From Pseudoalteromonas translucida KMM 520 (GTDB lineage Bacteria > Pseudomonadota > Gammaproteobacteria > Enterobacterales > Alteromonadaceae): 32,000 bases of DNA. The stretch is taken from the NCBI RefSeq assembly GCF_001465295.1, contig NZ_CP011034.1, positions 960,001 through 992,000 of the forward strand. Reading direction: 5' to 3'. Below, piece by piece: positions 850-27,146 of the stretch. Below the pieces are notes generated by a model, which was given only the letters and a program-made list of their open reading frames with translations, was not told the DNA's origin and did no database searches. Positions within the stretch are counted from its first letter, which is position 1, and the number at the start of each line of letters is the position of its first letter. Position numbers and translations under genes: made by a program.

Positions 850-858
850 GAGTGCAAA

Positions 859-2028
859 ATGTTCATTGATTTAACACCAGAACAACGGGCGTTACGCCTA
901 GAAGTACGTGATTATTTTTCTCAATTAATGACACCCGAACTGCGTCAAAAGCTAAGAGGCAGTGAAGGCGGCGAAGACTTCCGTAAGGTTGTACGTCAAA
1001 TGGGTAAAGACGGCTGGTTAGCTGTTGGTTGGCCAAAAGAGCACGGCGGCCAAGGTTATCAAGCCACCGAGCAGCTAATCTTTTTTGAAGAAGCCAATAT
1101 TGCAGGCGCGCCCCTACTATTTGTTACTATTAGCACAGTAGGTCCTGCGTTAATGGAATACGGTACTGAGTTACAAAAAGAAAAGTTTTTACCGGGTATT
1201 GCTAATGGCGAAATTCATTTTGCTATTGGTTATTCAGAGCCAAATGCGGGCTCTGATCTAGCCACTTTAAAAACCAAAGCTAGCTTAGAGGGCGACAACT
1301 TTATTGTTAATGGCAATAAGCTATGGACCTCAGGCGCTGAGTCGGCCGACTATATTTGGTTAGCGGCACGGACTGATCAAGAGCTGGCGCGTCACAAGGG
1401 GGTTTCTATTATGATTTTAGATACCCAAAGTGAAGGCTTTAGCAGCACAGTTATTCCAACGTGTTCAAACCCAACCGCGGCTACTTATTACGACAACGTA
1501 AAAGTACCTCAAGAAATGCTGGTGGGTGAATTAAATGGCGGTTGGCGTTTAATTACTTCGCAACTTAACCATGAACGTTTAGGTTTAGGATCGTGGTCAG
1601 ATAAAGTGGTTGGATTATTTCGCCGAGTGTATTTGTGGGCTAATACCGCAGATGAGCAAGGCAAGTCTGCTGCTAATAATCCTTGGGTGCGCGCAGCGTT
1701 AGCTGAGTGTTACGCTAAGTTAGAAGCCATGCGCTTAATTAACTTTCGTATCGCCGCCGATTTAGAAAAAGGCCATATGGATATTGCTCTGGCGTCAATT
1801 ACTAAAGTATATGGCTCAGAATGCTCAATTGAAATACTGCGTAAGCTGATTGATATTGTGGGAATGAATGGCATGGTGCGCGATGATTCTGCCGCGTCAT
1901 TTTTAATGGGTGAGCTGGAATACGAAGTGCGTGCCTCGGTTACCTTAACCTTTGGTGGTGGTGCTAATGAGTTACAAAGAGAACTAATAGCCCAATTTGG
2001 TATTGGTATGCCACGCGCAGTGCGCTAA
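859..2028 (+). CDS. Acyl-CoA dehydrogenase, alpha-type (carries the SEPNAGSD signature)
   Basis: 389-aa ORF with AGGAG RBS 6 nt upstream of the ATG. It has the ACAD fold motifs WPKEHGG, GYSEPNAGSDLATLKT and C-terminal GGGANELQRELIAQ. Confidence 0.9.
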   Translation: MFIDLTPEQRALRLEVRDYFSQLMTPELRQKLRGSEGGEDFRKVVRQMGKDGWLAVGWPKEHGGQGYQATEQLIFFEEANIAGAPLLFVTISTVGPALMEYGTELQKEKFLPGIANGEIHFAIGYSEPNAGSDLATLKTKASLEGDNFIVNGNKLWTSGAESADYIWLAARTDQELARHKGVSIMILDTQSEGFSSTVIPTCSNPTAATYYDNVKVPQEMLVGELNGGWRLITSQLNHERLGLGSWSDKVVGLFRRVYLWANTADEQGKSAANNPWVRAALAECYAKLEAMRLINFRIAADLEKGHMDIALASITKVYGSECSIEILRKLIDIVGMNGMVRDDSAASFLMGELEYEVRASVTLTFGGGANELQRELIAQFGIGMPRAVR

Positions 2029-2042
2029 CAGGAGATAACAGC

Positions 2043-3242
2043 ATGAGTGAGTTAACTGAATTTCGCCAGCAGGTCCGCACTTGGCTAGAGGAAAATTGCC
2101 CTATGTCGCTGCGCACACCAACGCCAGATGGCGAGCTCATTTGGGGCGGGAGTGAAGTTAACTTCACTTTTGATGATCAACGCCAGTGGTTTAATAGTAT
2201 GCGCGACAAACATTGGTTTTGTCCTAGTTGGCCAACGCAGTACGGTGGTGGTGGTTTAACCGCGCAACAAAACAGCGTATTAGAAAGTGAAATGCGCCGT
2301 TTAAAGTGTCGTCCGCCACAAATTAATTTAGGTATTTGGATGTTAGGCCCTGTGCTGTTAGAGCACGGAACTGAGCTGCAAAAACAACAGTTTTTAACAC
2401 CAATGACCCGCGGTGAAGTACGTTGGTGCCAAGGGTTTAGTGAGCCAAATGCCGGATCTGATTTGGCCAGTATTCGCACCAGCGCGGTTGATCAAGGCGA
2501 TCATTACTTAGTTAATGGCAGTAAAATTTGGACTTCTTATGGTGACAAATCCGATTGGATGTACGCATTAGTACGCACCGATGCTAAAGCCCCTAAACAC
2601 CAAGGCATAAGTTTATTACTCCTCGATATGCACAGCCAAGGTGTGCAAGCCAAACCTATTGATTTAATTAGCGGTAAATCTTCTTTTTGTGAAGTGTTTT
2701 TCGATAATGTAGCCGTGCCTAAAGAAAACCTTATAGGTGAGCTAAATGGCGGCTGGAAATTGGCTAAAGAATTGCTGCAACACGAACGCAGCGCAATGTC
2801 TAAATTTGGTGAGTTTCAATTACCCACGCACTTTGACTTAATGTCACTAATGAGCGATTACATGCCTGCGCCGCACAGCGCTAGTGAAGCCGCGCTTGTA
2901 AATAAGGCGGTTGCAGCCAATATGGAAGAGCAGGCATATAACTTAACGGTGCAACGCTTAGGTGCAGAAATGCAAGCGGGGCAAAGCTGTTTTGGTTTAA
3001 TGTCGATTATGAAGTTAGTGCATACCGAACAAGAAAAAATTAAATTTGAATTATTACTCGATGCGATGGGTTACCGCGGTTTAGGTTGGGAAGATGATAG
3101 CTTTAGCGAGCAAGAGCAAGCCATTACTCGCGCTTGGCTAAATAGTTTTTCGCAAACCATAGCTGGCGGATCCTCAGAAGTTCAGCTGAACGTGATAGCA
3201 AAGCGTGTATTGCAATTACCTGAAAATAAAGGAGTAAGCTGA
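2043..3242 (+). CDS. Acyl-CoA dehydrogenase, alpha-type subunit (probable partner of 3242..4354)
   Basis: 399-aa ORF with GGAG RBS at 2031-2034. Motifs are GFSEPNAGSDLASIRT and GGSSEVQLNVIAKRVL. Its stop TGA (3240-3242) overlaps the next ATG (3242-3244) by 1 nt. Confidence 0.9.
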   Translation: MSELTEFRQQVRTWLEENCPMSLRTPTPDGELIWGGSEVNFTFDDQRQWFNSMRDKHWFCPSWPTQYGGGGLTAQQNSVLESEMRRLKCRPPQINLGIWMLGPVLLEHGTELQKQQFLTPMTRGEVRWCQGFSEPNAGSDLASIRTSAVDQGDHYLVNGSKIWTSYGDKSDWMYALVRTDAKAPKHQGISLLLLDMHSQGVQAKPIDLISGKSSFCEVFFDNVAVPKENLIGELNGGWKLAKELLQHERSAMSKFGEFQLPTHFDLMSLMSDYMPAPHSASEAALVNKAVAANMEEQAYNLTVQRLGAEMQAGQSCFGLMSIMKLVHTEQEKIKFELLLDAMGYRGLGWEDDSFSEQEQAITRAWLNSFSQTIAGGSSEVQLNVIAKRVLQLPENKGVS

Positions 3243-4354
3243 TGAGTATGGTATATAGCGAAGACGATCGCATGTTGGCAGATACCGCCGAAGAGTTTTT
3301 AAGTGCGCAAAGCCCTGTCGCAGCGCAGCGCGCATTACGCGATAAGCCAACCGCAGTTAATTTTGATGAAAAAATTTGGCAACAAATGCTGGAACTTGGT
3401 TGGGGAGCAATTACTTTTTCCGAAGATCTGGGTGGCCTAGATTTTGGTTATAAAGGAATGGGCGCAATATTTGAAGCTATGGGTAAACACCTGAGTGCTT
3501 CGCCAATGTTATCGTCAGTAACCCTGTGTGGTTCGTTATTACAACAACTTGCCAACGCAGAGCAACAAACTTGGTTAACCGCAATAATAAGTGGTGAAAA
3601 ACGCCTAGCCTTAGCGGTTGACGAACACGCAAGACACGATCCCGACAGCATGCAAACAACGGCAACAACAGTGGTAGATGGCTTTGTGTTAAATGGTAAA
3701 AAAACCATGGTTATTGATGGTGTCAGCCCCGATGGTTGGATAGTTGCGGCGCAGCATAACGCTGGCTGTAGTGTGTTTATTGTGCCATTTAGTGAGCAAG
3801 TAAAGGTTAAGCGCCTTAACCTTATCGATGCGCGCAATTACGCCGAGCTTACTTTTAATGACTTAAAACTACCCGCAGAAGCCTTATTAGGCGACGCTGG
3901 CAATAGCTTAAAAGCACTGCAACAAGCACTCGATTTAGGTCGTTTATGTTTAAGTGCTGAAATGCTTGGTGCTATTAAAGCGCTGTTTGATACGACCATA
4001 GAATATTTAAAGGTACGTGAACAATTTGGTGTGAAAATTGGTACTTTTCAGGCATTACAACATCGTGCAGCACGCTGTTATGTAGAGTTAGAATTAGCTC
4101 AATCTTGTGTTATAGCCGCACTTTCGGATGCTGATAAGGCTGACGCAAACTTAGCCTCAAGCGCTAGTTTAGCTAAATGGAAACTCTCAAAAGTAGCCGA
4201 CTTAATCAGCGGTGAAGCGGTGCAAATGCATGGCGGTATTGGGGTTACTGATGAGCTAGACATTGGCCTTTACCTAAAGCGTATTCGCGTAGCACAAATG
4301 TGCCTTGGTGATGCCGATTACCACCAAGCGCGGTTTGCAGCTTTAGCGCCTTAA
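3242..4354 (+). CDS. Acyl-CoA dehydrogenase family protein, beta-type (lacks the SEPxAGSD signature)
   Basis: 370-aa ORF, translationally coupled to the upstream ACAD. The ACAD C-terminal helical domain is recognisable (FGVKIGTFQALQHRAA, QMHGGIGVTDE). The position of the signature-1 motif reads LAVDEHARHDPDS. A bidirectional terminator follows. Confidence 0.85.
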   Translation: MSMVYSEDDRMLADTAEEFLSAQSPVAAQRALRDKPTAVNFDEKIWQQMLELGWGAITFSEDLGGLDFGYKGMGAIFEAMGKHLSASPMLSSVTLCGSLLQQLANAEQQTWLTAIISGEKRLALAVDEHARHDPDSMQTTATTVVDGFVLNGKKTMVIDGVSPDGWIVAAQHNAGCSVFIVPFSEQVKVKRLNLIDARNYAELTFNDLKLPAEALLGDAGNSLKALQQALDLGRLCLSAEMLGAIKALFDTTIEYLKVREQFGVKIGTFQALQHRAARCYVELELAQSCVIAALSDADKADANLASSASLAKWKLSKVADLISGEAVQMHGGIGVTDELDIGLYLKRIRVAQMCLGDADYHQARFAALAP

Positions 4355-4444: not shown

Positions 4445-5233
4445 TTACTGTGCGGGTGCGCCAGGTACACCATAATAATATTGACCAGCCGTTAAGCCGC
4501 CATCTACCACCATTTCGGTGCCATTACAGTAAGATGCCTGATCCGAGACTAAAAAGTTAACCATATTGGCTACTTCTTCAGGCTGACAACCACGTTGCTG
4601 AGGAATAAATTTATAGCGTGGGTTCAACTCTTCGCTACTTAGCCCTTGTGGGTTAGTCATGGGGGTATTTACAGCGCCAGGGTGCACGCTATTTACACGT
4701 ATACCAAACGGGCCTAGCTCAAGCGCAGCGGTACGAGTTAACCCTCTTACTGCATATTTACTGGCAGCATACGCACCTGTGCCATTGTTAGGTAAAATAG
4801 ACGAGGCTGATGAAATATTAACGATGGCGCCACTGCCGGCTTTTTTCATGCAGGGGATCACGCTATGTAAGCCTAAAAAGGTGCCAGTAATATTAATATC
4901 GATTAATTTACGAAACTGCTGTGGCTCTGTGGTTTCGAGCGTTGCGAACAGTAAAATCCCCGCATTATTAACTAAAATATCTATTTTTTGGTATTTTTCT
5001 AAAGTTGCCGACACGATCGACTGCCATTGTAGCTCATCGGTTACATCGTGTGTCATAGGCGTAACCTTGTCGCCAAGTTCTTGCGCCATTTGGTTAAGCT
5101 CTTCAGTTAAAATATCAGTGGCTATAACTGTGGCTCCAGAGTCAACCAGTGCTTGGCATATTGCTCTACCAATACCCCGTGCGGCACCGGTAACTAAGGC
5201 GACTTTATTGATTAAATGTGTAGCGTTTTTCAT
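4445..5233 (-). CDS. Short-chain dehydrogenase/reductase, 3-alpha(or 20-beta)-hydroxysteroid dehydrogenase-like
   Basis: 262-aa ORF with the TGAARGIG cofactor motif, NNAG, and S...YAASK catalytic residues. The stretches FRKLIDINITGTFLGLHSVIPCMKKAGSGAIVNISS and RVNSVHPG closely recall the Streptomyces 3alpha,20beta-HSD sequence as I remember it. Confidence 0.85.
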   Translation of the reverse strand: MKNATHLINKVALVTGAARGIGRAICQALVDSGATVIATDILTEELNQMAQELGDKVTPMTHDVTDELQWQSIVSATLEKYQKIDILVNNAGILLFATLETTEPQQFRKLIDINITGTFLGLHSVIPCMKKAGSGAIVNISSASSILPNNGTGAYAASKYAVRGLTRTAALELGPFGIRVNSVHPGAVNTPMTNPQGLSSEELNPRYKFIPQQRGCQPEEVANMVNFLVSDQASYCNGTEMVVDGGLTAGQYYYGVPGAPAQ

Positions 5234-5320
5234 TGTTAGTTTCTCGCTTTAAAATAGTTGCAAAGTATTATTGCTGAGGTTCTTGCTGAGCCATAAAAAG
5301 GCAGCAGCTTTAATTATGGT

Positions 5321-5346
5321 AATAAAATAGGGGCGAGTGCCCCTAT
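5321..5346 (-). terminator. Rho-independent terminator downstream of the flavoreductase gene
   Basis: A 7-bp GC-rich stem, TAGGGGC (5328-5334) with GCCCCTA (5339-5345), closes a GAGT loop. On the minus strand it is followed by TTTTATT (plus-strand 5321-5327). Confidence 0.7.
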
Positions 5347-5373
5347 GTTAAAAGTATTAGTAATTAGTCGCTA

Positions 5374-7494
5374 TTAGCAGCTTAAGCCAGCTTTATAACC
5401 GGCACTAATTGCACCCTCTATATAGGCAACGTCATTACAATCACCAATGTCTTTTACTGTATGGCCAGCTGCAATTAAGCTGTTTGTTAAGCTATTATCA
5501 GTGGTAATACCCGTTGCCATTACTACGGTATCGGCAAGGCAGCTGCGGGGTTGCTCGTCTACTTTATAGTGCACAGCGTGGGTATCGATAGCAGTAACGT
5601 CTGCCTGAGTAATTAAAGTAACGCCTAATTGCCTAACATGATCAAGTACCCGCCAACGCCTAACAATACTCAGCTCGATGCCTAAGTTACGTCCGGCTTC
5701 TATAACGGTTACTTCACGGCCACGCTCAGCTAAAAATTCGGCTAACTCTAAACCTACTAAGCCACCGCCAACAATAGTGACGCGCTTGCCAAGTGGCATC
5801 CATAAATGCGATAAGCGTTGTAATTTATCTACGTTTTTTGTTAAGCCAAGGGCGTTGCCGGCTCCTAACATTAAGCGCTGTAGCGCAGTTAACTTATTAC
5901 TGGTGTAGGTACTTACTTCGCCGGTAAGTAACTGTCTAAGTTGTTCGCCAGACCAAACGTGGCTTAACTCACAACCCTGTATATCGGGCATGCCACGGCT
6001 AGCGCCGGTTGCTACAAACACTTCATCGGCATTTAGTGTACTAATTAATTTAGGAGTCGCTGTGGTATTGAGTTTTACTATAACCTTAGATTGCGCTAGT
6101 TGCCTTAAATGGTAGTCGAGTAACTTGCCATTTTCGGGGTAGGCCAGCGCTGCAAAAAATAATGTGCCGCCTAAGCGTTTACTGCGCTCTAACAAGGTTA
6201 CTTTATGGCCTCGTTCACTGGCGGTTACAGCAGCTTCTATGCCAGCAGGCCCGCCACCAATTACCACAATATGTTTGGGCTTATCGGTCATTATTACTTT
6301 TAGTTCAAACTCTTTACCTGTTGCCGCATTAACTGCACATTTAACCCGCTGGTTAATAAATACTTGGCTTACGCATACATAGCAATAAATACAGGGACGA
6401 ATATCAGCTTCACGATCTGCGGTGAGTTTATTAGGAAGTTCAGGGTCGGCTAATAATTTACGTCCCATTGCAATAAAATCACACTTACCGCTGGCAATAG
6501 CTGCATCGGCAATATCGGGCTCTAAGCGGCCAACGGCAATTACCGGTATAGATACTTCTTTCTTCACTGCAGCAGCCCAATCTAAAAAGCCTGCTGGTTT
6601 ATGTACTAGCGGCGCGGCGGTAAATGCAGAGCCTGTGGTTAAGGTAGCATAAGCAGAAATACTAACGGCATTTACACTCGCTTGTTCAACCATTTTGCTC
6701 ACTGCAATACAGTCCTCAAGGGTAATACCGCCAGGGGTGTTGAGTTCGTGCGCGTCTAGGCGTACCCACAATGGAAAATCTTGACCAACACGTTCGCGTA
6801 TTGCTGCTATTACCTCGAGCAATAAACGTGCGCGGTTTTCAATACTGCCGCCATACTCGTCATCGCGTTTATTATAGTAGCTTGATAAAAAGCCCGCCAA
6901 AATATACGAGTGCGCGCTGTGCAGTTCAATCGCGTCAAAACCCGCTTGCTGGGCACGTTTTGCCGCTGCGGCAAACCATTCCACCATTTGGACAATATCG
7001 GCTTTTTCCATTACTTTTATGGTGATGGGTTTATCTGCTGGAGGTCTAACAAAGGTACTTAATTCTGTTGGTGTTACCGCTTGCATAATATCGCTTTGTG
7101 GTGGCGCAGGGGGTAGTGAAGGCACCCAAAGCTCGCGGCCTTCTGCTAAATCGCGTACTGCCGTTTTACCAGCATGCTGTAATTGCACCGCAATTTTTGC
7201 ACCATGCTTATGCACCCGCTCGGTAAGTGCTTTTAATCCAGGAATAAACTCATCTTTAGAAATACCCACCTGATAAGGTTCGGCAGTTCCTGCGGGAAAC
7301 GCAATAGCAATAGATCCCATAGTAATAAGGCCCACACCGCCTTTTGCTCTGGCTTCATAAAAAGCTTGAATACGCTCACTACAATGGCCATCAGGGTCCG
7401 CATAATTAGAGCCCATTGGCGCCATCATAATGCGGTTACGCAGCGTTAGGCCGCCTACTTTCCCTGGTTTAAGCAAGTGCTGATAATGTGACAT
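5374..7494 (-). CDS. NADH:flavin oxidoreductase with Fe-S cluster and FAD/NAD(P) domains (2,4-dienoyl-CoA reductase FadH / BaiCD-BaiH family)
   Basis: 706-aa ORF. The N-terminal OYE TIM-barrel has the motifs APMGS and VQLQHAGK. The cysteine cluster is CIYCYVCVSQVFINQRVKC. Two Rossmann motifs are present, VVIGGGPAGIEAA and TIVGGGLVGLELA. RBS AAGAGG lies upstream, and the gap to the upstream hydrolase gene is only 42 nt. Confidence 0.88.
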   Translation of the reverse strand: MSHYQHLLKPGKVGGLTLRNRIMMAPMGSNYADPDGHCSERIQAFYEARAKGGVGLITMGSIAIAFPAGTAEPYQVGISKDEFIPGLKALTERVHKHGAKIAVQLQHAGKTAVRDLAEGRELWVPSLPPAPPQSDIMQAVTPTELSTFVRPPADKPITIKVMEKADIVQMVEWFAAAAKRAQQAGFDAIELHSAHSYILAGFLSSYYNKRDDEYGGSIENRARLLLEVIAAIRERVGQDFPLWVRLDAHELNTPGGITLEDCIAVSKMVEQASVNAVSISAYATLTTGSAFTAAPLVHKPAGFLDWAAAVKKEVSIPVIAVGRLEPDIADAAIASGKCDFIAMGRKLLADPELPNKLTADREADIRPCIYCYVCVSQVFINQRVKCAVNAATGKEFELKVIMTDKPKHIVVIGGGPAGIEAAVTASERGHKVTLLERSKRLGGTLFFAALAYPENGKLLDYHLRQLAQSKVIVKLNTTATPKLISTLNADEVFVATGASRGMPDIQGCELSHVWSGEQLRQLLTGEVSTYTSNKLTALQRLMLGAGNALGLTKNVDKLQRLSHLWMPLGKRVTIVGGGLVGLELAEFLAERGREVTVIEAGRNLGIELSIVRRWRVLDHVRQLGVTLITQADVTAIDTHAVHYKVDEQPRSCLADTVVMATGITTDNSLTNSLIAAGHTVKDIGDCNDVAYIEGAISAGYKAGLSC

Positions 7495-7536
7495 AGATTA
7501 TTACCTCTTATTATTTATGTTTTTTGAGGTGCTGTA

Positions 7537-8391
7537 TTAGCCGTGTTTTAAAAAATCAATACAGCTGCTGTTAAACAGGCGTTGATGTTCTACTTGTACC
7601 CAATGACCACAACGATTAAGCATAATAAAGCGCGCTGTTGGTACGTTATCCAAAATTTTATGCATGCCTTGATGTGGATTAAATTTATCGTTAGTGCCCC
7701 AGAAGCCAAGCACTGGGCAGTTAAGCTCGCCAAGGCGTTCGGTCATGTTTGGCACCATCATAGTGCTAAATAAATTAGCGGGTTGAGTTACTGCCACTGC
7801 AGCGCGCTCTGCTAATATATCATCAGAAAGTACAGCTGAATCAAAAAGTTGTAACGACATAACTTCGCGCATTTGATCAACTCCCATAGGGCCGCGGCTG
7901 TATACTTCTACCATACGCACTATACCTTCCATCTCAAAGTAAGTTTCGCGCTCTTCAACACCACCCGGGGCCATTAAAATTAGGCGCTCTACCGTATCGG
8001 GATAATCAAGTGCTTGGCCCAGCGCAATAGCGCCGCCTAAAGAGTTACCTAATAAAGTCACCTTAGGCAAATCAAGAGCGTTAATAAAACCATTTAGTGC
8101 TGTGACAAAAAAAGCTAAATCGTAATTAACGTCATCAGGTTTATCTGAGCGGCCAAAACCAGGTAAGTCGAGCACAATATTACGATAGCCCGCATCAGCA
8201 AATTCAGGATAATTGCCTTTAAAGTTACTAAAACCACTTGCTCCTGGGCCACTACCATGAAGCCAAATAACAATAGGGCCTTGGCCTTGCTCTAAATAAT
8301 GTAATTTCAGGCCGCTTTCTAGGGTAACAAAGTGTCCCAGTGGTAACGGTAAATCCTGTGTTTGCTCTGGATTAGTTGTTTGCTGATTCAA
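7537..8391 (-). CDS. Alpha/beta hydrolase, meta-cleavage-product C-C hydrolase (HsaD/TesD/BphD-like)
   Basis: It has HGSGPGASG, the nucleophile elbow GNSLGG and C-terminal GHWVQ motifs. The preferred start is TTG at 8391, with a GGAG RBS 8 nt upstream, giving 284 aa. The ORF track extends to a GTG at 8442 that has no usable RBS, so the start is uncertain. Confidence 0.85.
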   Translation of the reverse strand: MNQQTTNPEQTQDLPLPLGHFVTLESGLKLHYLEQGQGPIVIWLHGSGPGASGFSNFKGNYPEFADAGYRNIVLDLPGFGRSDKPDDVNYDLAFFVTALNGFINALDLPKVTLLGNSLGGAIALGQALDYPDTVERLILMAPGGVEERETYFEMEGIVRMVEVYSRGPMGVDQMREVMSLQLFDSAVLSDDILAERAAVAVTQPANLFSTMMVPNMTERLGELNCPVLGFWGTNDKFNPHQGMHKILDNVPTARFIMLNRCGHWVQVEHQRLFNSSCIDFLKHG

Positions 8392-8498
8392 AACTCTTAC
8401 TCCTAATTTTGCCTTGCTAACAAGGTAATGAACGCTCACCACCTCTGCTTATTTATATAGTTTTCCTACTCAATACTGCGTTGCTCGTTTGCTTAAAA

Positions 8499-8514
8499 CA
8501 TCGTCCATTTAGAC
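8499..8514 (-). promoter_or_regulatory. Putative operator/activator site, copy 1 (minus-strand reading GTCTAAATGGACGATG)
   Basis: This is one of three copies of GTCTnAwTGGACGATG in the window. It sits in the divergent intergenic region and is oriented toward the hydrolase/flavoreductase operon. Confidence 0.5.
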
Positions 8515-8537
8515 CAGTGTTTTGTTTGTGCAGTTTA

Positions 8538-8553
8538 GTCTTATTGGACGATG
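8538..8553 (+). promoter_or_regulatory. Putative operator/activator site, copy 2 (GTCTTATTGGACGATG)
   Basis: It forms an imperfect inverted repeat (14/16) with copy 1, separated by 23 nt. It is oriented toward the SDR operon, whose ATG lies 108 nt downstream. Confidence 0.5.
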
Positions 8554-8661
8554 CTGGTTTTTATTACATATCCCAGTATGAATTGGAAAATTAATATTGG
8601 TGCGACTGCAAATGTTGCTCTAGATACGCCAAATTGGCTTGAGAAAAGCAAGGGGATAAAA

Positions 8662-9405
8662 ATGAAACATCAGGATCAAGTTGTGCTAGTAACAGGTGCA
8701 GGGCAAGGCATAGGCCAATCAATAGTAAGTTATTTTGCTGCTGCAGGGGCTAATGTCGCTGCGGTAGATATTAACGCCGACACATTAAATGCCAGCGTTA
8801 ATGAATTAAATGCAAACGTTGCCGGCAACATTGTGGCTATTACTGCCAACATAGCAAAAAGCGACTCAGTACGTGATGCCATTGCCGCTGTAGTGGAAAA
8901 ATTTGGCCGACTCGATGCCATTATTAATGTGGCTGGTGTGGGCTCTATTGATGCGTTTGTTGATACCCCAGATGAGCACTGGGACAAAGTGATTGCAGTT
9001 AACTTAACCGGTACTTTTTTATGTTGTCGTGAGGCGGCGAAAGTTATGCAAGCCCAAGGATCGGGTTGCATCATTAATGTTTCCAGCACGGCGGCATTAA
9101 CCGGCGAAGGCCCAAGTCATTATTGTGCATCAAAAGCCGGTGTTATGGGGCTTACGCGTAGTATGGCACGCGAACTAGCGCCAGTAGGTATTCGGGTAAA
9201 TACCATAGTACCAGGGCCAACCAATACACCAATGATGGCCGATATTCCAGAGGAGTGGACGCAACAAATGATCGCGGCTATTCCATTAGCGCGCATGGGC
9301 GAAGGTGAAGACATTGCCAAAGTAGCGAGCTTTTTAGCGTGTGATGATTCTGGCTTTATTACCGGCCAAAATATAGCAGTAAATGGCGGCATGGCCTTTA
9401 TCTAG
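8662..9405 (+). CDS. Short-chain dehydrogenase/reductase (FabG-like)
   Basis: Start ATG 8662 is preceded by an AAGGGGA RBS and gives a protein beginning MKHQDQVVLVTGAGQGIG. It has NVAG and S...YCASK catalytic motifs. The 37-codon N-terminal extension in the ORF track (from 8551) has no RBS and overlaps the promoter region. Confidence 0.85.
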   Translation: MKHQDQVVLVTGAGQGIGQSIVSYFAAAGANVAAVDINADTLNASVNELNANVAGNIVAITANIAKSDSVRDAIAAVVEKFGRLDAIINVAGVGSIDAFVDTPDEHWDKVIAVNLTGTFLCCREAAKVMQAQGSGCIINVSSTAALTGEGPSHYCASKAGVMGLTRSMARELAPVGIRVNTIVPGPTNTPMMADIPEEWTQQMIAAIPLARMGEGEDIAKVASFLACDDSGFITGQNIAVNGGMAFI

Positions 9406-9413
9406 GAGTGAAT

Positions 9414-10049
9414 ATGAGTGATTTAAGTTCAAGCCTTGAACAACGAATTGACCGCTTAGAGTCTATAGAGTCAATTCGTCAGCTCGCGGGTAAATACTCG
9501 TTGTCATTAGATATGCGTGACATTGACGCACATGTAGGCTTATTTGCTCCCGATGTACGTGTCGGGGGGGGGAAAAGCGGCCGAGCTCATTTAAAAGCCT
9601 GGGTTGACTCAACCCTGCGCGATCAATTTACTGGCACGTCGCATCATTTAGGGCAGCACATTATTGAGTTTGTTGATGAGAACAACGCCATTGGTGTTGT
9701 GTACTCTAAAAATGAGCATGAAACCGGGCGTGAATGGGTACTGATGCAAATGCTGTACTGGGATGATTACCAACGCATTGATGGGGTGTGGTATTTCCGC
9801 CGCCGTCTGCCATGTTACTGGTATGCCAGCGATATAAATTCAGCGCCAATTGGCGATATGAAAATGCGCTGGCCGGGTCGCGAACCGTACACCGGCACCT
9901 TTCATGATTTATTCCCATCATGGCAGTCGTTTTGGCAGCATCGACCTAACCCCGATGAGTTACCCGAAGTGGCAACTCCTGCACCACTTGAACAGTTTTT
10001 GCGCACCATGCGGGGTGATACCCCAGCACCTAAAATCCGCGTTCGTTGA
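9414..10049 (+). CDS. NTF2/SnoaL-like (SnoaL_4-type) protein with a C-terminal extension of about 75 aa
   Basis: AGGAG RBS at 9404-9408 lies 5 nt before ATG 9414. The N-terminal pattern LEQRIDRLESIESIRQLAGKYSLSLDMRD, followed by beta-rich core segments, is typical of SnoaL_4/NTF2-like proteins. The gene contains a G9 tract at 9564-9572. Confidence 0.7.
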   Translation: MSDLSSSLEQRIDRLESIESIRQLAGKYSLSLDMRDIDAHVGLFAPDVRVGGGKSGRAHLKAWVDSTLRDQFTGTSHHLGQHIIEFVDENNAIGVVYSKNEHETGREWVLMQMLYWDDYQRIDGVWYFRRRLPCYWYASDINSAPIGDMKMRWPGREPYTGTFHDLFPSWQSFWQHRPNPDELPEVATPAPLEQFLRTMRGDTPAPKIRVR

Positions 10050-10069
10050 TTAACACCAAAGGAGATAAT

Positions 10070-11938
10070 ATGTTGGATAATAATAAAATTCCTTATGCTG
10101 GAAGTCTCGACAACGCGCCAGTATCTAGAGCCGCTACACAACAAAAAATGGATAAGCGCGCACTAGCAGTACGCTCGGTTAGTCCGTCGCAAAAGTACAG
10201 CATTGCCGACCGCCTTGAAGCGCAAGCAGCAGCACAAGGCGATGCGCCATTTTTAATTTATCAAGGAAAAAGCTACAGCTACAGTGAAGTAGATGCCCAA
10301 GCAAGTAAATTTGCAAAAGCAATACAGGCACGCGGCTTAATGGAAGGTGATGTGTGCGCGATTGCGATTGAAAATCGCCCGGAGTTTTTCTTTGCGTGGT
10401 TTGGCTTAACCAAGCTGGGCGTAGTGGTCGCTTTTATTAACACCCAAGTACAAGGCAGCGTGCTTGAACATGCAATTAACACCACAGATGCCAATGTCGT
10501 TATTGTTGGTGAAGAATGTGTGCAGCGTTTTATTGAAACACCAGAGCTGGCAAATAAGTCAATTTGGCTAGTAGGCGATGATGAAGTAGTTGATAAACCA
10601 GTGCTTCCTCAGTGGATTGATAGCAGCTTTGATAGCGATGTTGCTGCGCGCAGTGGTACAAGTTGTAAGCAGGCACGTGGCTCAACCGTGGGCGAAACGC
10701 CAACCTTACTTATTTTTACCTCAGGCACGACCGGGTTACCTAAAGCGGCGATTTACAGCCATATGCGTTGGTTAACCTCGGGTGATGTGATGGTTGAAAC
10801 CATTGACGCCACACCAAATGACGTATTCTATTGTTGTTTACCTTTATACCACGGCGCTGCAGCCACCTCAGTGACTTCAACTGCGCTCGCGGCGGGGTCA
10901 AGTATAGTGGTTAGGCGCAAATTTAGTGTTAGACAATTTTGGCCTGATATTCAAACGCATAACATTACAGTTTGCCAATACATAGGTGAGATTTGCCGCT
11001 ACCTGCTTAACTACGCCGAGGCCACGGGAGTTAAGCCAAAAGATCATCAACTGCGCTGCATGTTAGGAGCTGGTTTAACCGAAACCAGTTGGCATCGTTG
11101 GCTTGAGTACTTTGGTCAAATGGACGTGCTAGAAGGGTGGGGCTCTACAGAAGCGAATACTAACTTACTTAACTTAGATAACTATATTGGTTCGTGTGGC
11201 CGAGTGCCGCGCTGGGATCGCACCAATTTTAGATTAGTTAAATTTGATACCGAAACCGAAACTCATGTTAAAGATGCTAACGGGCATTATGTTTTATGCC
11301 AACCCGGCGAAGTAGGGGAAGGGCTGGGAATGATCATTAACATGCCTGATTTTGGTGGTGGCCGTTTTGAGGGCTATACCTCAAAACAAGGTACTGAGCA
11401 GAAAATTTTGCGTGATGTATTTCAGCAAGGTGACGCTTACTGGCGCTCAGGTGATTTACTGCGCTACGATGAAAATGGATACTTTTACTTTGTAGATCGC
11501 ATTGGCGACACCTATCGCTGGAAAAGTGAAAATGTATCTTCGCAAGAAGTGGCCACCGCTTTGGCTGAGTACGATGGCGCCGAGCTGGTTAATATTTATG
11601 GCGTTCAGGTTCCTGAAAATGAAGGTCGAGCAGGTATGGCGGCCATTGTTATGCAACCAGGCAGGCAGTTTGATCCGCATGTGTTTTATGCTTTAACCAT
11701 AGAAAAAGTGCCTAATTACGCTGCCCCTCAGTTTGTAAGGGTAAGCAAAGCCGCCGACATGACATCAACTTATAAACTGCGTAAAGTCGACTTACAAAAA
11801 CAAGGTTATGACCCAGTAGCGTGTAATGAACCAATTTATATACGTAACGATAAGTTAGGCTGTTATCAGCCGTACTGTGAAAATGCGTTGCAAGCAGTAG
11901 GATTTTTACCGTTTTGTAGCAATCAGGAGGAAAAATAA
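10070..11938 (+). CDS. Acyl-CoA synthetase (AMP-forming), FATP/FadD6-like; candidate steroid-acid or bile-acid CoA ligase
   Basis: GGAG RBS at 10061-10064 precedes ATG 10070. It has the AMP-binding signature IFTSGTTGLPKAA, plus YHGAA, GWGSTE and YFYFVDRIGDTYRWKSENVS motifs. The TAATG stop/start overlap with the next gene is at 11936-11940. Confidence 0.85.
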   Translation: MLDNNKIPYAGSLDNAPVSRAATQQKMDKRALAVRSVSPSQKYSIADRLEAQAAAQGDAPFLIYQGKSYSYSEVDAQASKFAKAIQARGLMEGDVCAIAIENRPEFFFAWFGLTKLGVVVAFINTQVQGSVLEHAINTTDANVVIVGEECVQRFIETPELANKSIWLVGDDEVVDKPVLPQWIDSSFDSDVAARSGTSCKQARGSTVGETPTLLIFTSGTTGLPKAAIYSHMRWLTSGDVMVETIDATPNDVFYCCLPLYHGAAATSVTSTALAAGSSIVVRRKFSVRQFWPDIQTHNITVCQYIGEICRYLLNYAEATGVKPKDHQLRCMLGAGLTETSWHRWLEYFGQMDVLEGWGSTEANTNLLNLDNYIGSCGRVPRWDRTNFRLVKFDTETETHVKDANGHYVLCQPGEVGEGLGMIINMPDFGGGRFEGYTSKQGTEQKILRDVFQQGDAYWRSGDLLRYDENGYFYFVDRIGDTYRWKSENVSSQEVATALAEYDGAELVNIYGVQVPENEGRAGMAAIVMQPGRQFDPHVFYALTIEKVPNYAAPQFVRVSKAADMTSTYKLRKVDLQKQGYDPVACNEPIYIRNDKLGCYQPYCENALQAVGFLPFCSNQEEK

Positions 11939-13149
11939 TGGGCTTAGCAGGAAACGCCGCGATTGTTGGTGCGGCGCAATATAAACCAGAAAAATACCAA
12001 ACCGCGCCGCAAATGTTTCATTTAGAACAAGTGGCCGACTTAGCAAATCAAGCATTATTAGATGCAGGGCTACAAAAAAGTGATTTGGATGGGTTGGTTA
12101 TTAATGGCCCACATTTTCACGAGGCTTCAGTATTTGTGCCGGCAATGGCTGCTGAATATTTAGGAATAGAAGTAAACTTTGCCGAAGTAGTTGATTTGGG
12201 TGGCTGTACCGCAGTTGCACAAATTTGGCGTGCAGCGGCCGCGATTGAACTGGGGTTATGCCAAGCGGTACTGTGTGTTATTCCCGCTCGCATGGCACCA
12301 ATGGCGCCAAATGAAGACCCAGCTTGGATGACGCAAGCTATGCGTTATGGCGGTCACAGTACGGCATTTGGCGCGCCAGAAGCTGAGTTTGATTTGCCCT
12401 ATGGTCACATGGGACAAAACACCGGTTATGCAATGATTGCACAGCGTTACGCGGCGCAATATGGGTACGATCAAGCAGCTATGGCTAAAATAGCAGTCGA
12501 TCAGCGCTTTAATGCGCAATACCATAAAGACGCTATTTTTAAAGGCAAAGAGCTAACAATTGCAGAAGTATTAGCTTCTAAAATGGTAGCCGACCCACTG
12601 CATGTACTAGAAATAGTCATGCCGGTATCGGGTGGCGCGGCGGTTATTGTGGCCTCTAAAGAAGTGGCTGCAAGAGCGAAAAAACGCCCTGCATTTATTA
12701 CTGGTTTTGGTGAGCGTTTATCATTTAAATCGCCATCGTATGCGCAAGACATGACAGTGACGCCAGTTGCCGAAGCCGCAAAGCGTGCGTTTACTATGGC
12801 TGGGCTGTCGCCTAAAGATATACATGCAGCACAAATTTATGATTGTTACACCATTACTGTGTTGTTATCACTTGAAGATGCTGGCTTTTGCCCTAAAGGG
12901 GAAGGCATGCGCTTTATTAAAGAGCATAACCTTACCTTTAAAGGCGACTTTCCGATGAACACCCATGGCGGGCAACTTAGTTTTGGCCAAGCTGCGGCGG
13001 CGGGTGGTTATTCTCAAGTTATTGAGGCTTTCCATCAAATTTCAAACTCTGCCGATCAACGTCAGCTAAAAAGGTGTGACAATGTATTTGTTAGTGGCAC
13101 CGGTGGCGTGATGAGTGAGCAGGGCGCATTGATATTACAAGGAGGCTAG
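11938..13149 (+). CDS. Thiolase-fold protein (Ltp/SCP-x-like), candidate partner of the downstream DUF35 domain
   Basis: 403-aa ORF with AGGAGG RBS at 11925-11930. It shows thiolase-like architecture with a C-terminal MNTHGGQLSFGQ motif. It is a paralog of 1..849. Confidence 0.85.
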   Translation: MGLAGNAAIVGAAQYKPEKYQTAPQMFHLEQVADLANQALLDAGLQKSDLDGLVINGPHFHEASVFVPAMAAEYLGIEVNFAEVVDLGGCTAVAQIWRAAAAIELGLCQAVLCVIPARMAPMAPNEDPAWMTQAMRYGGHSTAFGAPEAEFDLPYGHMGQNTGYAMIAQRYAAQYGYDQAAMAKIAVDQRFNAQYHKDAIFKGKELTIAEVLASKMVADPLHVLEIVMPVSGGAAVIVASKEVAARAKKRPAFITGFGERLSFKSPSYAQDMTVTPVAEAAKRAFTMAGLSPKDIHAAQIYDCYTITVLLSLEDAGFCPKGEGMRFIKEHNLTFKGDFPMNTHGGQLSFGQAAAAGGYSQVIEAFHQISNSADQRQLKRCDNVFVSGTGGVMSEQGALILQGG

Positions 13150-13150
13150 T

Positions 13151-14086
13151 ATGGCAACGTTAAAACCTATGCCAGTCGCAACAAAAATTTCTGCACCATT
13201 TTGGCAGGCGTTAAAAGAAAACCAGTTAAAAATTCAGCAATGTAAGCAGTGTGAAGGGTGGGTGTTTTTTCCACGTAATCATTGTAGTCATTGTTTAGCG
13301 CATGAGCTGCAGTGGCAGCAAGTGAGCGGTGAGGGCACCTTATATTCATACACCCTTACACGTATTCCAACTATGCCAGAGTTTAGTGACGAAATGCCGC
13401 AAGCATTAGCTGTGGTCGAACTAGCTCAAGGCGTTCGTATCAATACCACGTTAATAGATGTGGCAGAGCAAGACATTAAAATAGGCATGCCTGTTAAAGC
13501 GGTGTTTGATAAAGTGAGTAGTGATGGCGATACCTTGCTACGTTTTACCTCTATTAATAATGCCGGTGGGGTGCGTGAATATACCAATCCGCTCAATGGG
13601 CTTGAACGCAACGACAAAGGGCAAGTACAAGTACCGCTAAGTAACCTTGCTGCGCTTTATGCACTGGCCGATAATAAATATACCGACTGGAGTAACGTGG
13701 TTGTTGTTGATCAAGACCTGATTAACGCCTTTGCCGATTTATCGGGGGATGATTACTGGTTGCATACCGATCCTGAGCGCGCAAAAACAGATAGCCCGTT
13801 TAAAACCACCATTGCCCATGGCTCGTTAGTACAAGTGCTGCAGTCGCGTTTAACGATTGCACTGCCATTTGAAATTATCGGCTTTAATAATATGGTTAAC
13901 TATGGCTCAAACCGTTTGCGCTTTCCTGCGCCAGTGCCTGCGGGCGCAACTATTTATGGCCGTAGTAAGGTAAAAGACATTAGCGTGTCGCACAAAGGGG
14001 TGCAATTAACCCTAGAAATGAACATCCATGTGGTTGGTAATGATAAACCAAGTGTGATCAACGATTTGGTGATCCTGTACCGCTAA
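13151..14086 (+). CDS. Fusion protein: N-terminal DUF35 (zinc ribbon plus OB fold) and C-terminal MaoC-like (R)-hydratase hot-dog domain
   Basis: GGAGG RBS at 13141-13145. The zinc ribbon reads CKQCEGWVFFPRNHCSHC and is followed by an OB-fold region. The C-terminal hydratase-2-like motif is LSGDDYWLHTDPERAKTDSPFKTTIAHG. A strong terminator follows. Confidence 0.8.
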   Translation: MATLKPMPVATKISAPFWQALKENQLKIQQCKQCEGWVFFPRNHCSHCLAHELQWQQVSGEGTLYSYTLTRIPTMPEFSDEMPQALAVVELAQGVRINTTLIDVAEQDIKIGMPVKAVFDKVSSDGDTLLRFTSINNAGGVREYTNPLNGLERNDKGQVQVPLSNLAALYALADNKYTDWSNVVVVDQDLINAFADLSGDDYWLHTDPERAKTDSPFKTTIAHGSLVQVLQSRLTIALPFEIIGFNNMVNYGSNRLRFPAPVPAGATIYGRSKVKDISVSHKGVQLTLEMNIHVVGNDKPSVINDLVILYR

Positions 14087-14114
14087 ACACAGTAAATAAT
14101 TTGGTAAATATAAA

Positions 14115-14157
14115 GCCGCTGAGCAACTTTATTGCTCAGCGGCTTTTTGTTTTTTTA
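14115..14157 (+). terminator. Rho-independent terminator ending the SDR-to-DUF35/MaoC operon
   Basis: A perfect 12-bp stem, GCCGCTGAGCAA (14115-14126) with TTGCTCAGCGGC (14132-14143), closes a 5-nt loop. It is followed by TTTTTGTTTTTTT. Confidence 0.9.
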
Positions 14158-14204
14158 GTTTTAAGTTTATGACTCTTAATGCTTTTTTTTCGTTTTTTTG
14201 GTTA

Positions 14205-14220
14205 GTCTCAATGGACGATG
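14205..14220 (+). promoter_or_regulatory. Putative operator/activator site, copy 3 (GTCTCAATGGACGATG)
   Basis: It lies 58 nt upstream of the dioxygenase ATG and is preceded by a T-rich tract. The 21-nt stretch 14200-14220 is 18/21 identical to 8533-8553. Confidence 0.5.
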
Positions 14221-14278
14221 AAGCATTAGTAATTTGCCCTAATAATGAACCTAATCACAATTTTGTAAGAGAGGGTTC

Positions 14279-15169
14279 ATGGATATTCGCGCATTAGGTT
14301 ATTTCGTAGCACAGACTGACGCTCCACACGAGTGGCAACACTACGCAGAGCAAGTATTAGGGATGATGACGGCGCCAACTGACGATGGTGGATTCTACAT
14401 CAAAATGGATGAGCGCCCATACCGCATGTTGGTTATACCCGGCGCAGACAAACGCTATTTTGCCTCTGGTTGGGAACTAACAGGTGCGAAAGCTTACAAC
14501 AATGCTAAACAAACATTACTTGATAAAGGCATTGCCTTTGAAGAGGCTAATAAAGCCTTATGTGAGCAGCGCCGCGTACAAAATATACTCATAGTTAATG
14601 ACCCCGCGGGTAATCGCCACGAACTTTATTGGGGTCATGTTTCAGACTGCCAACCGTTTACTTCTCCTCAAGGTGTACCCGCTTTTATTACCGGCGATAT
14701 GGGCCTGGGCCACACCGTATTACCTGCGCCAAATTTTGATGAAACCTTTGCGTTTTTAACCGACGTATTAGGGTTTGAATTATCAGATTTATTTAACTTT
14801 AAACCCGCACCAGAGGCCGATCCAATTCGCATTTACTTTATGCATTGTGGTAACGCACGTCACCACAGTTTAGCTATTTGTGAATTTCCGGTACCAAGCG
14901 GTTGCGTGCATGCCATGGTCGAAGTTGAAAACATGACAGAAGTAGGCCGCGCTCACGACAGACAACAACAACATCAAGTACAGCTGTCGGCCACTTTAGG
15001 TCAGCATCTTAATGACAAAATGACCTCATTTTATATGAAAACACCATCAGGCTTCGATTTAGAGTATGGCTTTGGTGGTCTGCAAGTTGAAAACTGGGAA
15101 GAGCATTGTGCTTTTGAATTTAGCCGAGTGAGCCTGTGGGGCCACGATTTCTCAGTAGGAGAAAAATAA
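14279..15169 (+). CDS. Type I two-domain extradiol dioxygenase (HsaC/TesB/BphC-like; catecholic seco-steroid ring cleavage)
   Basis: 296-aa ORF beginning MDIRALGYF. The spacing of putative metal ligands matches BphC-type enzymes: GLGHTVL, ARHHSLAI and FDLEYGFGG. The TAATG overlap with the next gene is at 15167-15171. Confidence 0.85.
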   Translation: MDIRALGYFVAQTDAPHEWQHYAEQVLGMMTAPTDDGGFYIKMDERPYRMLVIPGADKRYFASGWELTGAKAYNNAKQTLLDKGIAFEEANKALCEQRRVQNILIVNDPAGNRHELYWGHVSDCQPFTSPQGVPAFITGDMGLGHTVLPAPNFDETFAFLTDVLGFELSDLFNFKPAPEADPIRIYFMHCGNARHHSLAICEFPVPSGCVHAMVEVENMTEVGRAHDRQQQHQVQLSATLGQHLNDKMTSFYMKTPSGFDLEYGFGGLQVENWEEHCAFEFSRVSLWGHDFSVGEK

Positions 15170-16044
15170 TGAATAAAGTAAAAACAACAGCGCAAATGGT
15201 GGCTGAACTAAGTGATGGCATGACAATTGGCATTGGTGGTTGGGGCCCGCGCCGTAAACCTATGGCACTTATTCGCGAAATTATAAAGTCGGATCTTAAA
15301 GATCTTACGATTGTGGCGTATGGCGGCGCCGATGTGGGTATGTTATGCGCAGCTGGCAAAGTAAAAAAATTAATCTTTGCGTTTGTATCGCTAGACTTTA
15401 TTCCACTAGAACCTTTTTTTCGTAAAGCTCGCGAGCAAGGCGAGCTTGAGCTAATGGAAATTGACGAAGGTATGTTGTTACTTGGCCTTCGTGCTGCGGC
15501 GTGGGGCTGTCCTTACATTCCAACTCAAGTTGGTTTAGGTACAGATGTACTTACACATAACCCAGATATTCAAGTGATTGATAGCCCCTATGACGATAAA
15601 GAATGGGTGGCAATGCCAGCGCTTAAACTCGACGCTGCACTGGTACATGTTGATCATGCTGATGAGCGTGGTGTGTGCCAGATTTCAGGTCCAGATCATT
15701 ACCTAGACGATTGGTTTGTACGCGCAGCAAATAAAAGCTATGTCACCTGCGACAAGCTGGTTAGCAGCGATCATTTTTATGATCGCACAGCGGCAGATAA
15801 AGTATTTTGGGAGCGCAGCTTAACAACAGCCGTAAGTGAAGTACCTGGTGGCGCGCATCCAAGCAGTTGTCCGCCATTTTACGGCATTGATAATAAACAT
15901 TTGCTGCAATATAACAAATACGCAAAAGAAGGCGGCTTTAGTGCTTACTTTGATGAATTTATTAACAATAAATCAGAGCAAGAGTATCAAGCTAAATTAG
16001 GCGGCATCGATGCGATCCGTCAAATCCCTAACACAAGTTACTAA
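15169..16044 (+). CDS. CoA-transferase-fold subunit A (IpdA/ScdL1-like)
   Basis: Start ATG 15169 gives MNKVKTTAQMVAELSDGMTIGIGGWGPRRKP, a diverged class I CoA-transferase alpha signature. The ORF track's upstream extension overlaps the dioxygenase gene. Confidence 0.8.
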   Translation: MNKVKTTAQMVAELSDGMTIGIGGWGPRRKPMALIREIIKSDLKDLTIVAYGGADVGMLCAAGKVKKLIFAFVSLDFIPLEPFFRKAREQGELELMEIDEGMLLLGLRAAAWGCPYIPTQVGLGTDVLTHNPDIQVIDSPYDDKEWVAMPALKLDAALVHVDHADERGVCQISGPDHYLDDWFVRAANKSYVTCDKLVSSDHFYDRTAADKVFWERSLTTAVSEVPGGAHPSSCPPFYGIDNKHLLQYNKYAKEGGFSAYFDEFINNKSEQEYQAKLGGIDAIRQIPNTSY

Positions 16045-16058
16045 GGCAGGACATTAAA

Positions 16059-17734: not shown

Positions 17735-17736
17735 AT

Positions 17737-18852: not shown

Positions 18853-18855
18853 GCT

Positions 18856-19608: not shown

Positions 19609-19616
19609 GGCCGACT

Positions 19617-20780: not shown

Positions 20781-20791
20781 CGAGTGAAACT

Positions 20792-23004: not shown

Positions 23005-23018
23005 TTAAGGAGAAAGGT

Positions 23019-25477: not shown

Positions 25478-25512
25478 AGCACAAAATATAGAGATGCTAA
25501 GCAGTAAACAAC

Positions 25513-25537
25513 AAAAGAGCCAACTAGGCTCTTTTTT
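25513..25537 (+). terminator. Rho-independent terminator ending the long dioxygenase-to-amidase operon
   Basis: AAAAGAGCC (25513-25521) and GGCTCTTTT (25527-25535) form a stem around an AACTA loop, and the run of six T (25532-25537) serves as the trailing T tract. Confidence 0.8.
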
Positions 25538-25638
25538 AGTTGTAAAAACTAGTGACTATACGGCGGTAATTCAGTCGCAGTTAATTATAATAATGAGTTA
25601 GCGGCAGCTGCAATTAGCTTGGTTGTTAAATATTAGGC

Positions 25639-25664: not shown

Positions 25665-25688
25665 ATAAAATATTCTAAGGGGAAGTAC

Positions 25689-27127: not shown

Positions 27128-27146
27128 ATATTCTTGCAAAAACAAA

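Follow-up and report, generated by a model that had tools for sequence, protein, structure and literature searches.

A conserved 20-bp box at the promoters of a steroid and bile-acid degradation cluster of Pseudoalteromonas translucida, and a TesR-like candidate for its activator

A 32,000-nucleotide stretch of Pseudoalteromonas translucida KMM 520 (contig NZ_CP011034.1, positions 960,001 to 992,000; hereafter the window, in whose own numbering positions are given) carries a steroid and bile-acid degradation cluster in which three operons are each headed by a copy of one short DNA motif. Two of these copies stand in inverted orientation at 8499-8553, between operons that diverge from each other. 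We are close to certain that the motif is a promoter element of the steroid regulon. Its conservation, specificity, position and orientation, as well as its co-location with genes for TesR-like proteins, were computed from the collected sequences. Moreover, on the basis of the promoter geometry, the dyad structure of the box, Comamonas genetics, the gene co-location and a nearly invariant helix-turn-helix (HTH) domain, we regard class II activation by a dimeric TesR-like regulator of the PAS/LuxR type as the probable mode of control.

A sequence-only reading of the window had described a 16-nt motif as an inverted pair in the divergent promoter region, and the pair was confirmed at the stated coordinates. 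On the plus strand, CATCGTCCATTTAGAC stands at 8499-8514 and GTCTTATTGGACGATG at 8538-8553; the two match as reverse complements in 14 of their 16 positions, are separated by 23 nt, and lie 107 nt from the TTG at 8391 and 108 nt from the ATG at 8662. The two start codons chosen in that reading were borne out as well, with family profile alignments that begin at protein residue 1-2 for the ATG and an AGGAG placed 9 nt upstream of the TTG. A third copy of the motif is found at 14205-14220 on the plus strand. When the pattern GTCTNAWTGGACGATG was searched with up to 2 mismatches allowed, exactly these three sites were returned from the window, each with 0 mismatches and all intergenic, against 0.05 expected. 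The 9-mer TGGACGATG, said to be over-represented in three intergenic copies, does occur 3 times, compared with 0.08 expected from dinucleotide shuffles, and none of 100 shuffles reached 3. A 20-nt weight matrix built from orthologues exceeded 10 bits in the 32-kb window only at the three known sites, whose individual scores (Table 1) may be compared with the matrix maximum of 29.4 bits.

The conservation of the motif was followed in relatives. For this, loci were collected with the hydrolase as query and one genome per species, which gave 80 orthologous loci of gamma- and betaproteobacteria (Alteromonadales, Marinobacterium, Halomonas, Shewanella, Vibrio, Endozoicomonas, Pseudomonas, Marinobacter, Aromatoleum, Zoogloea, Comamonadaceae, Polaromonas, Cupriavidus and others). 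In nearly all of them the hydrolase operon is preceded by the motif and the divergent operon by an inverted copy, and 16 of the 80 also have a box ahead of HsaC. Scanning 1.41 Mb with the weight matrix gave 203 sites that score 20 bits or more, compared with 0-1 in a first-order Markov simulation, and a conserved gene start follows within 300 nt in 167 of 201 sites. Phylogenetic footprinting, which had been proposed as a check, gave the same picture: nine Alteromonadales intergenic regions, aligned at a mean column identity of 45%, have as their invariant blocks both boxes, both -10 hexamers and a ribosome-binding site.

The distance between inverted copies is not conserved. In the 55 divergent pairs, anything from 12 to 262 nt separates the two 16-mers, while each box keeps a fixed distance to its own -10 hexamer. 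Since the spacing of the pairs varies so widely, the inverted copies are two independent promoter boxes, and a single composite operator is ruled out. Both copies of the pair described earlier are therefore real, but they are separate promoter boxes and not halves of a composite operator. Similarly, the near-symmetric distances to the start codons hold in the window but not in relatives, where it is the distance to the -10 hexamer that is kept.

The specificity of the box was evaluated in two further collections. An exact search of metagenomes for the box together with its -10 hexamer gave 53 matches in marine, freshwater, soil and engineered samples. A steroid-cluster homologue lies directly downstream in 47 of them (HsaC in ~29, HsaA in ~15, an SDR in 3 and HsaD in 1), while 4 matches are at contig ends and 2 are without a recognised gene; the enrichment ahead of steroid operons for which the sequence-only reading proposed a test is thus observed. 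In addition, the entire 174-kb Vibrio alfacsensis plasmid NZ_CP140104.1 was scanned, revealing 12 sites of at least 15 bits, all directly ahead of steroid operons. The box-headed units comprise a coenzyme A (CoA) ligase operon; HsaD; BNR/MMPL; DUF1329/DUF1302; flavin reductase with TesEFG; MFS with KshA; SDR, MaoC and thiolase; the pair of enoyl-CoA hydratase (ECH) and SDR-Ltp operons; ETF-beta, ETF-alpha and a TesR-like gene; HsaA with KshB; and the operon from HsaC to an amidase. No site of at least 15 bits was found in the plasmid's ~100 kb of exopolysaccharide, phosphonate and replication genes. The frequent, position-independent occurrence that would mark a generic repeat is accordingly not seen on this replicon, where the box stands only ahead of steroid operons.

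It should be noted that this plasmid (read here as L140, L141, L142 and L143) carries a near-complete steroid/bile-acid pathway, is non-mobilizable, and holds the pathway beside an XrtA/PEP-CTERM exopolysaccharide locus. The V. alfacsensis from which it derives came from turbot and sole intestine, and plasmid-borne bile-acid catabolism looks like a trait of this fish-gut Vibrio. On this plasmid and in other loci, boxes precede genes for BNR/YCF48-like and MMPL proteins and DUF1329/DUF1302 pairs (L081 3664-3683; L083 2442-2461 and 6503-6522; L142 24088-24107 and 27273-27292). Because these genes are box-headed, they belong to the same regulon, and the poorly characterised envelope proteins that they encode are likely components of steroid uptake.

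To describe the box itself, 167 unique instances were gathered with GTC-N5-GGACGATG as the sole requirement. The internal dyad GTC-N6-GAC pointed out in the sequence-only reading is always present. Two positions ahead of GTC, 165 of the 167 instances have a T, and the next base is A or G, so that the full box reads T-R-G-T-C-Y-N-A-W-Y-G-G-A-C-G-A-T-G; the 16-nt motif first described is real but was drawn too short, its distal side extending 2-3 nt further (the T-R ahead of GTC). The box is an imperfect 20-bp dyad, nnTRGTCY-N4-GGACGATG, with the ideal form CATCGTCC-N4-GGACGATG, and this ideal form occurs as a complete 20-bp palindrome in some genomes (loci L022, L047, L070, L084/85 and others). 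Both strands score well in 14 sites, 6 of which have -10 hexamers on both sides; one palindromic box can therefore apparently serve two divergent promoters, which would be possible for a symmetric dimer. Apart from the 20-nt box and the -10 hexamer, the flanks have zero information content, and the box is therefore not part of a longer repeat.

The positions downstream of the box were never used in selecting the sites, and they carry a clear -10 signal. Counted from the start of GGAC, an A is found at +29 in 145 of the 167 instances, an A at +32 in 110 and a T at +33 in 133, which corresponds to a sigma-70 -10 element of the form xAxxAT. Across 197 unique sites, xAxxxT begins 20 nt past the box in 72% and 21 nt past it in 16% (88% together), compared with 1-7% at each of the other offsets tested. 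A -35 element is missing at the matching position: the best match to TTGACA at a spacing of 16-18 nt reaches at most 3 of 6 bases in 189 of the 197 sites (96%), and a consensus scan for canonical -35/-10 promoters found none in 8380-8680 or 14060-14300 of the window. Given the fixed offset of the -10 hexamer and the lack of a usable -35, the box spans about -52 to -33, with its centre at about -42.5 relative to the predicted -10, and takes the place of the -35. Class II activator sites such as the lux and tra boxes have the same geometry, centred at about -41.5 to -42.5 over the -35. Because the box replaces the -35 at a fixed distance from the -10, an activator is likelier than a repressor, and we infer with considerable confidence that the box is an activator site. 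The transcription starts given in Table 1 are predictions made from the -10 signal, placed ~7 nt downstream of the hexamer.

These observations are consistent with the following scheme. Each box would be the upstream element of an activator-dependent sigma-70 promoter of a steroid/bile-acid operon, which a dimeric transcription factor would occupy when a steroid or a steroid-derived metabolite is present, and the bound dimer would recruit RNA polymerase by class II contact. Two such promoters, back to back at 8499-8553, would drive the hydrolase and SDR operons that diverge there, and a third, at 14201-14220, the HsaC/TesB operon. The factor we propose is an orthologue of Comamonas TesR/TeiR that would be encoded outside the window.

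A candidate for this factor was sought among the genes around the box. When NarL/FixJ/GerE HTH queries were run against the region within 10 kb of the hydrolase in the 80 loci, no significant match to a GerE-type regulator was obtained, and two weak matches appeared at E = 0.02. A jackhmmer search seeded with these two revealed TesR-like genes in 4 of the 80 loci, the regulator usually being more than 10 kb from the hydrolase. The protein has ~385 residues, weak PAS matches as its sole sensor matches in Pfam, and a probable C-terminal HTH of the LuxR/GerE type; its family has more than 2000 members, which are named LuxR C-terminal-related or CsgD-family/PAS proteins in the sources. A PDB profile search gave weak matches to the HTH domains of VpsT, ChrA, VraR and ComA (E = 0.003-0.5). 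An AlphaFold2 model (mean pLDDT 83) contains two GAF/PAS-like modules, a long linking helix and a four-helix HTH at residues 308-371, and the folds nearest to it are tandem GAF/PAS sensors that form parallel dimers (phytochromes, PDE GAF tandems, DhaR-N). The candidate binder is probably dimeric. The 51 family members compared share 35-65% identity in the sensor part, but their HTH (…LTPAE…RNTARAHLRxIFSKTGV.RQ…) is nearly invariant, in parallel with the invariance of GGACGATG in the box.

TesR-like genes lie within box-bearing clusters of Glaciecola, Marinobacterium, Endozoicomonas, Vibrio, Pseudomonas, Comamonadaceae and Pseudoduganella; those of Marinobacterium, Endozoicomonas and Pseudomonas have more than one box each. 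For the window itself, an exact look-up of the acyl-CoA dehydrogenase at 859-2028 returned no record, and the left flank was reached through a 93% identical homologue of the first gene, the Ltp that is cut by the window's edge. This homologue lies on the Glaciecola contig L085, which extends the synteny leftward in the order KshB, SDR, OYE, TesR-like (3115-4275), MFS, ECH, a palindromic box, SDR, ChsH2, acyl-CoA dehydrogenase (ACAD), MaoC, Ltp and three ACAD. The TesR-like gene is 5.7 kb upstream of the Ltp that matches window 7-849. The cluster part of the window contains no transcription factor gene, which, together with the TesR-like gene of this syntenic relative, agrees with the earlier suggestion of a pathway-specific regulator encoded outside the window; the reading of the motif as the site of such a regulator is supported. 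The palindromic box of L085 (6528-6547, CATCGTCCATATAGACGAAG) faces the divergent enoyl-CoA hydratase and has -10-like hexamers 21 nt off on both sides. The first operon of the window (Ltp and three ACAD) probably starts at a box outside the window.

The search for other candidates was made by clustering the open reading frames without a homologue in the window and annotating the 20 commonest clusters with Pfam, which yielded no other conserved transcription factor family. TesR-like proteins are the sole regulators that recur in the box-bearing clusters of every clade examined. We judge it likely that the TesR-like protein is what binds the box, direct binding being inferred from these associations.

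The position of the gene within its operon was also recorded. In Vibrio it is the last gene of the box-headed operon ETF-beta, ETF-alpha, tesR (L140 38368-41459, i.e., NZ_CP140104.1 138368-141459), and in Marinobacterium it is the last gene of the box-headed operon SDR, OYE, ETF-beta, ETF-alpha, tesR (L081 6159-11158). Given that tesR closes box-headed operons, positive autoregulation by read-through is suggested. Some Pseudomonas clusters carry two TesR-like paralogues (L083 10001-11140 and 20002-21140; P0233 with L035), and P. stutzeri Chol1 reportedly has two as well; heterodimers or split regulons are possible.

Several observations weigh against direct control of the box by a TesR-like homodimer. 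The box is strongly asymmetric, with an invariant proximal half, GGACGATG, and a relaxed distal half, T-R-GTC-Y, which has A or G where symmetry predicts C and whose two outermost bases are unconserved. Such asymmetry is not predicted by a simple symmetric homodimer, although it could arise from RNA polymerase contacts on the proximal side. In the Comamonadaceae loci, only one strong box is seen between the divergent tesA operons, which leaves the tesA1-tesG-side promoter unaccounted for. For example, L074 (8825-8946; also L073 and L079) has one strong box between the HsaA-KstD-KshB and the flavin reductase-TesD-TesEFG operons. Its plus side offers merely a degenerate sequence containing GGACGAAT that lacks a correctly spaced -10, and the strongest box of the family (28.9 bits) heads the HsaA-KstD-KshB-CoA-ligase operon. 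The match of the TesR-like proteins to Pfam GerE, at 22.3-23.0 bits, is just below the cut-off of 23.5, and the candidate gene is known from a syntenic relative and not from the window's own genome. Moreover, published accounts portray TeiR as a polar, membrane-associated kinase that acts through phosphorylation (PMC6678751, PMC8399759); if TeiR is a kinase, another DNA-binding protein could bind the box directly.

This last point leads to an alternative in which a different activator, be it of the AraC/XylS type with two HTH units, of the LysR type or another one encoded elsewhere, binds the box while TesR acts upstream as a sensor or kinase. We consider it rather unlikely. Along with the kinase activity reported for TeiR, it would fit a box that is directional, asymmetric and fixed over the -35, like the marbox-type sites of the AraC family, and genes of the AraC and LysR families are indeed present in some clusters. 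However, they occur sporadically (AraC in 7 loci, LysR in 11), are no orthologues of each other and are missing from the cluster of the window, whereas TesR-like proteins alone are seen in each clade examined and have a nearly invariant HTH. The dyad, and the full palindromes serving both directions, also fit a homodimer better than a monomer with two HTH units. That the box is instead the operator of a repressor, placed over the -35 and functionally like those of KstR/KstR2 so that induction would come about by de-repression, appears improbable to us. A dyad site of ~20 bp in the promoters of steroid operons would be expected of KstR operators too, but the lack of a usable -35 (at most 3 of 6 bases in 96% of the sites) combined with the rigid 20-21 nt to the -10 is typical of activator-dependent promoters, and Comamonas genetics show a positive regulator. 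Furthermore, reviews report that KstR homologues are absent from bile-acid-degrading Proteobacteria, and the KstR and KstR2 motifs, TnnAACnnGTTnnA and AnCAAGnnCTTGnT, are at chance level here (1 and 4 matches, compared with 0.9 and 1.5 expected), all inside coding regions.

The very high invariance of the box and its rigid spacing to a downstream element would also suit an upstream promoter element that an alternative sigma factor (ECF-type or sigma-54) recognises. We give this explanation very little credit: the downstream element is a -10 of the housekeeping type (A at -11, T at -7), and the box, a dyad of 18-20 bp that ends 20 nt before the -10, lies too far upstream, and is too long, to be a -35 element. 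The sigma-54 pattern GG-N10-GC is at chance level and was not found in the intergenic regions, and no sigma factor gene was seen in the annotated clusters. As for a generic dispersed repeat or chance recurrence without regulatory role, nothing but the shortness of the motif speaks for it, and its probability is practically nil when set against information-free flanks, a ~200-fold excess over the simulated expectation and copies that, in independent collections, precede almost only steroid genes.

The window holds a proteobacterial-type steroid and bile-acid cluster (9,10-seco pathway) with a GC content of ~45%, whose boxes and transcription units are collected in Table 1. The gap at 5234-5373, between the SDR and the flavoreductase genes, contains no box or promoter-like site, and the SDR is for this reason taken as co-transcribed in operon 1. 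The intrinsic terminator that follows operon 2 ends it, and box 3 therefore heads a separate transcription unit. In Rfam no match exceeded the gathering score, and the weak ones coincide with the terminator hairpin. No DNA-binding regulator gene was found in the cluster part of the window.

Table 1. Boxes, -10 hexamers, predicted starts and transcription units of the window
Feature	Position	Strand	Details
Ltp-type thiolase (7-849, cut by the left edge) and three acyl-CoA dehydrogenases	7-4354	+	
Operon 1: HsaD/TesD-like hydrolase (7537-8391), BaiCD-like Fe-S flavoreductase (5374-7494), probably SDR (4445-5233)	4445-8391	-	
-10 hexamer of box 1, CAGTAT	8473-8478	-	20 nt past box; predicted start ~8466; fixed-offset signal; A and T positions conserved in alignment
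Box 1, reads ACTG GTCTAAATGGACGATG; hydrolase/flavoreductase operon promoter	8499-8518	-	26.1 bits; invariant footprint block
Box 2, TTTA GTCTTATTGGACGATG; SDR/SnoaL/CoA-ligase/aldolase operon promoter	8534-8553	+	28.6 bits; invariant footprint block
-10 hexamer of box 2, CAGTAT	8574-8579	+	20 nt past box; predicted start ~8586
Operon 2: SDR, SnoaL-like protein, acyl-CoA synthetase, Ltp2-type thiolase-like aldolase, ChsH2-like hydratase	8662-14086	+	
Intrinsic terminator closing operon 2	14112-14146	+	strong; 15-bp stem, then T run
Box 3, GTTA GTCTCAATGGACGATG; HsaC/TesB-like ring-cleavage and C/D-ring beta-oxidation operon promoter	14201-14220	+	27.7 bits
-10 hexamer of box 3, AATAAT (TAATAAT counting 14240)	14241-14246	+	predicted start ~14253
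Operon 3: HsaC/TesB-like dioxygenase, IpdAB/ScdL-like CoA transferase, enoyl-CoA hydratases, FabK-like reductase, acyl-CoA dehydrogenases, thiolase, SDR, amidase	14279-25477	+	

A partly conserved AATTAATA(TTGGTG) element is found at 8590-8606, ~5-20 nt past the predicted start of the SDR operon, in several Alteromonadales, and it might be a second regulatory site or mere relatedness. The amidase gene (23900-25477) closes operon 3, as it does in the same order on the Vibrio plasmid, and its product may serve the deconjugation of glycine- or taurine-conjugated bile salts. Downstream of the cluster (25500-31000), the GC content falls to 35-40%; this part contains a stand-alone CheY-like receiver (26589-26972), an open reading frame of 172 aa without family match (26041-26559, minus strand), and then the housekeeping genes murJ and ribF. 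The closest relatives are a Pseudoalteromonas metagenome-assembled genome, whose hydrolase is 95% identical, and TARA Oceans contigs with proteins 99.6% identical. The latter, scaffolds L087, L096 and L098, match the SDR and HsaC of the window at this level, and the source organism or a near-identical strain therefore occurs in open-ocean samples.

We lean towards the view that TesR/TeiR-type regulators bind the box directly and that it serves beta- and gammaproteobacteria alike as a shared "steroid box" of the 9,10-seco regulon. If this is true, TesR/TeiR would be a classical ligand-sensing class II activator and not only a membrane kinase, and it would feed back positively on its own operon. 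The box alone would then delimit the regulon in any genome or metagenome, including the uncharacterised MMPL/BNR, DUF1302/DUF1329, MFS and ETF genes. On the Vibrio plasmid, such an in silico definition gives ~11 operons, among them the uptake candidates (MMPL/BNR, DUF1302/DUF1329, MFS) and the ETF operon that ends in the regulator gene. A box of ~29 bits with a fixed promoter geometry is a directly testable model of proteobacterial steroid regulation; it also offers a specific metagenome marker of steroid-degrading beta- and gammaproteobacteria and a ready part for steroid/bile-salt biosensors and inducible expression systems. As an object, a transcription-factor site in activator-dependent promoters is ordinary, and the novelty lies in the specific system, not in the principle. 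How Proteobacteria regulate steroid and bile-acid degradation is "largely unknown" according to a 2021 review (PMC8399759). TesR/TeiR is the single positive regulator known, and how it works is disputed. In a limited search of the searchable literature, no description of the motif or of a DNA target of TesR/TeiR was found, and the specific box system appears undescribed.

Among known systems, the TesR/TeiR regulon of Comamonas testosteroni has the orthologous pathway and operons. TesR, a positive regulator of the LuxR type, is almost identical to TeiR (PMC6895838, PMC6678751). In strain TA441, the induction of tesB-tesR, tesA1-tesG and tesA2-ORF18 depends on it (PMC6895838, citing Horinouchi 2004). 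Two of these three TesR-dependent operon groups have a strong box in the loci that were read, C. testosteroni itself not being among them. In the window, the tesB/HsaC orthologue stands behind box 3 and the tesD/HsaD operon behind box 1; the window differs in having no tesR gene, and TeiR differs in its description as a membrane-associated kinase. One paper, in a passage that cites earlier work, has tesR-like genes confined to C. testosteroni, whereas more than 2000 homologues were found here.

The class II promoters with lux and tra boxes (LuxR, TraR, LasR) resemble the present ones in having an 18-20-bp dyad near -42.5 that replaces the -35, a sigma-70 -10, and a binder (here the candidate) with a C-terminal four-helix HTH, which in the candidate is probably of the LuxR/GerE type. 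The steroid box is, however, unrelated to lux boxes in sequence and markedly asymmetric with its invariant proximal half, and the TesR-like sensor is a tandem GAF/PAS-like one rather than the acyl-homoserine-lactone binding domain of the LuxR/TraR quorum-sensing regulators. Finally, the KstR/KstR2 operators of actinobacterial cholesterol catabolism are similar in that one palindromic motif marks the promoters of a large steroid regulon and allows its extent to be delimited. They differ in their sequence motifs and in being bound by TetR-family repressors, whereas the architecture of the box described here points to activation.

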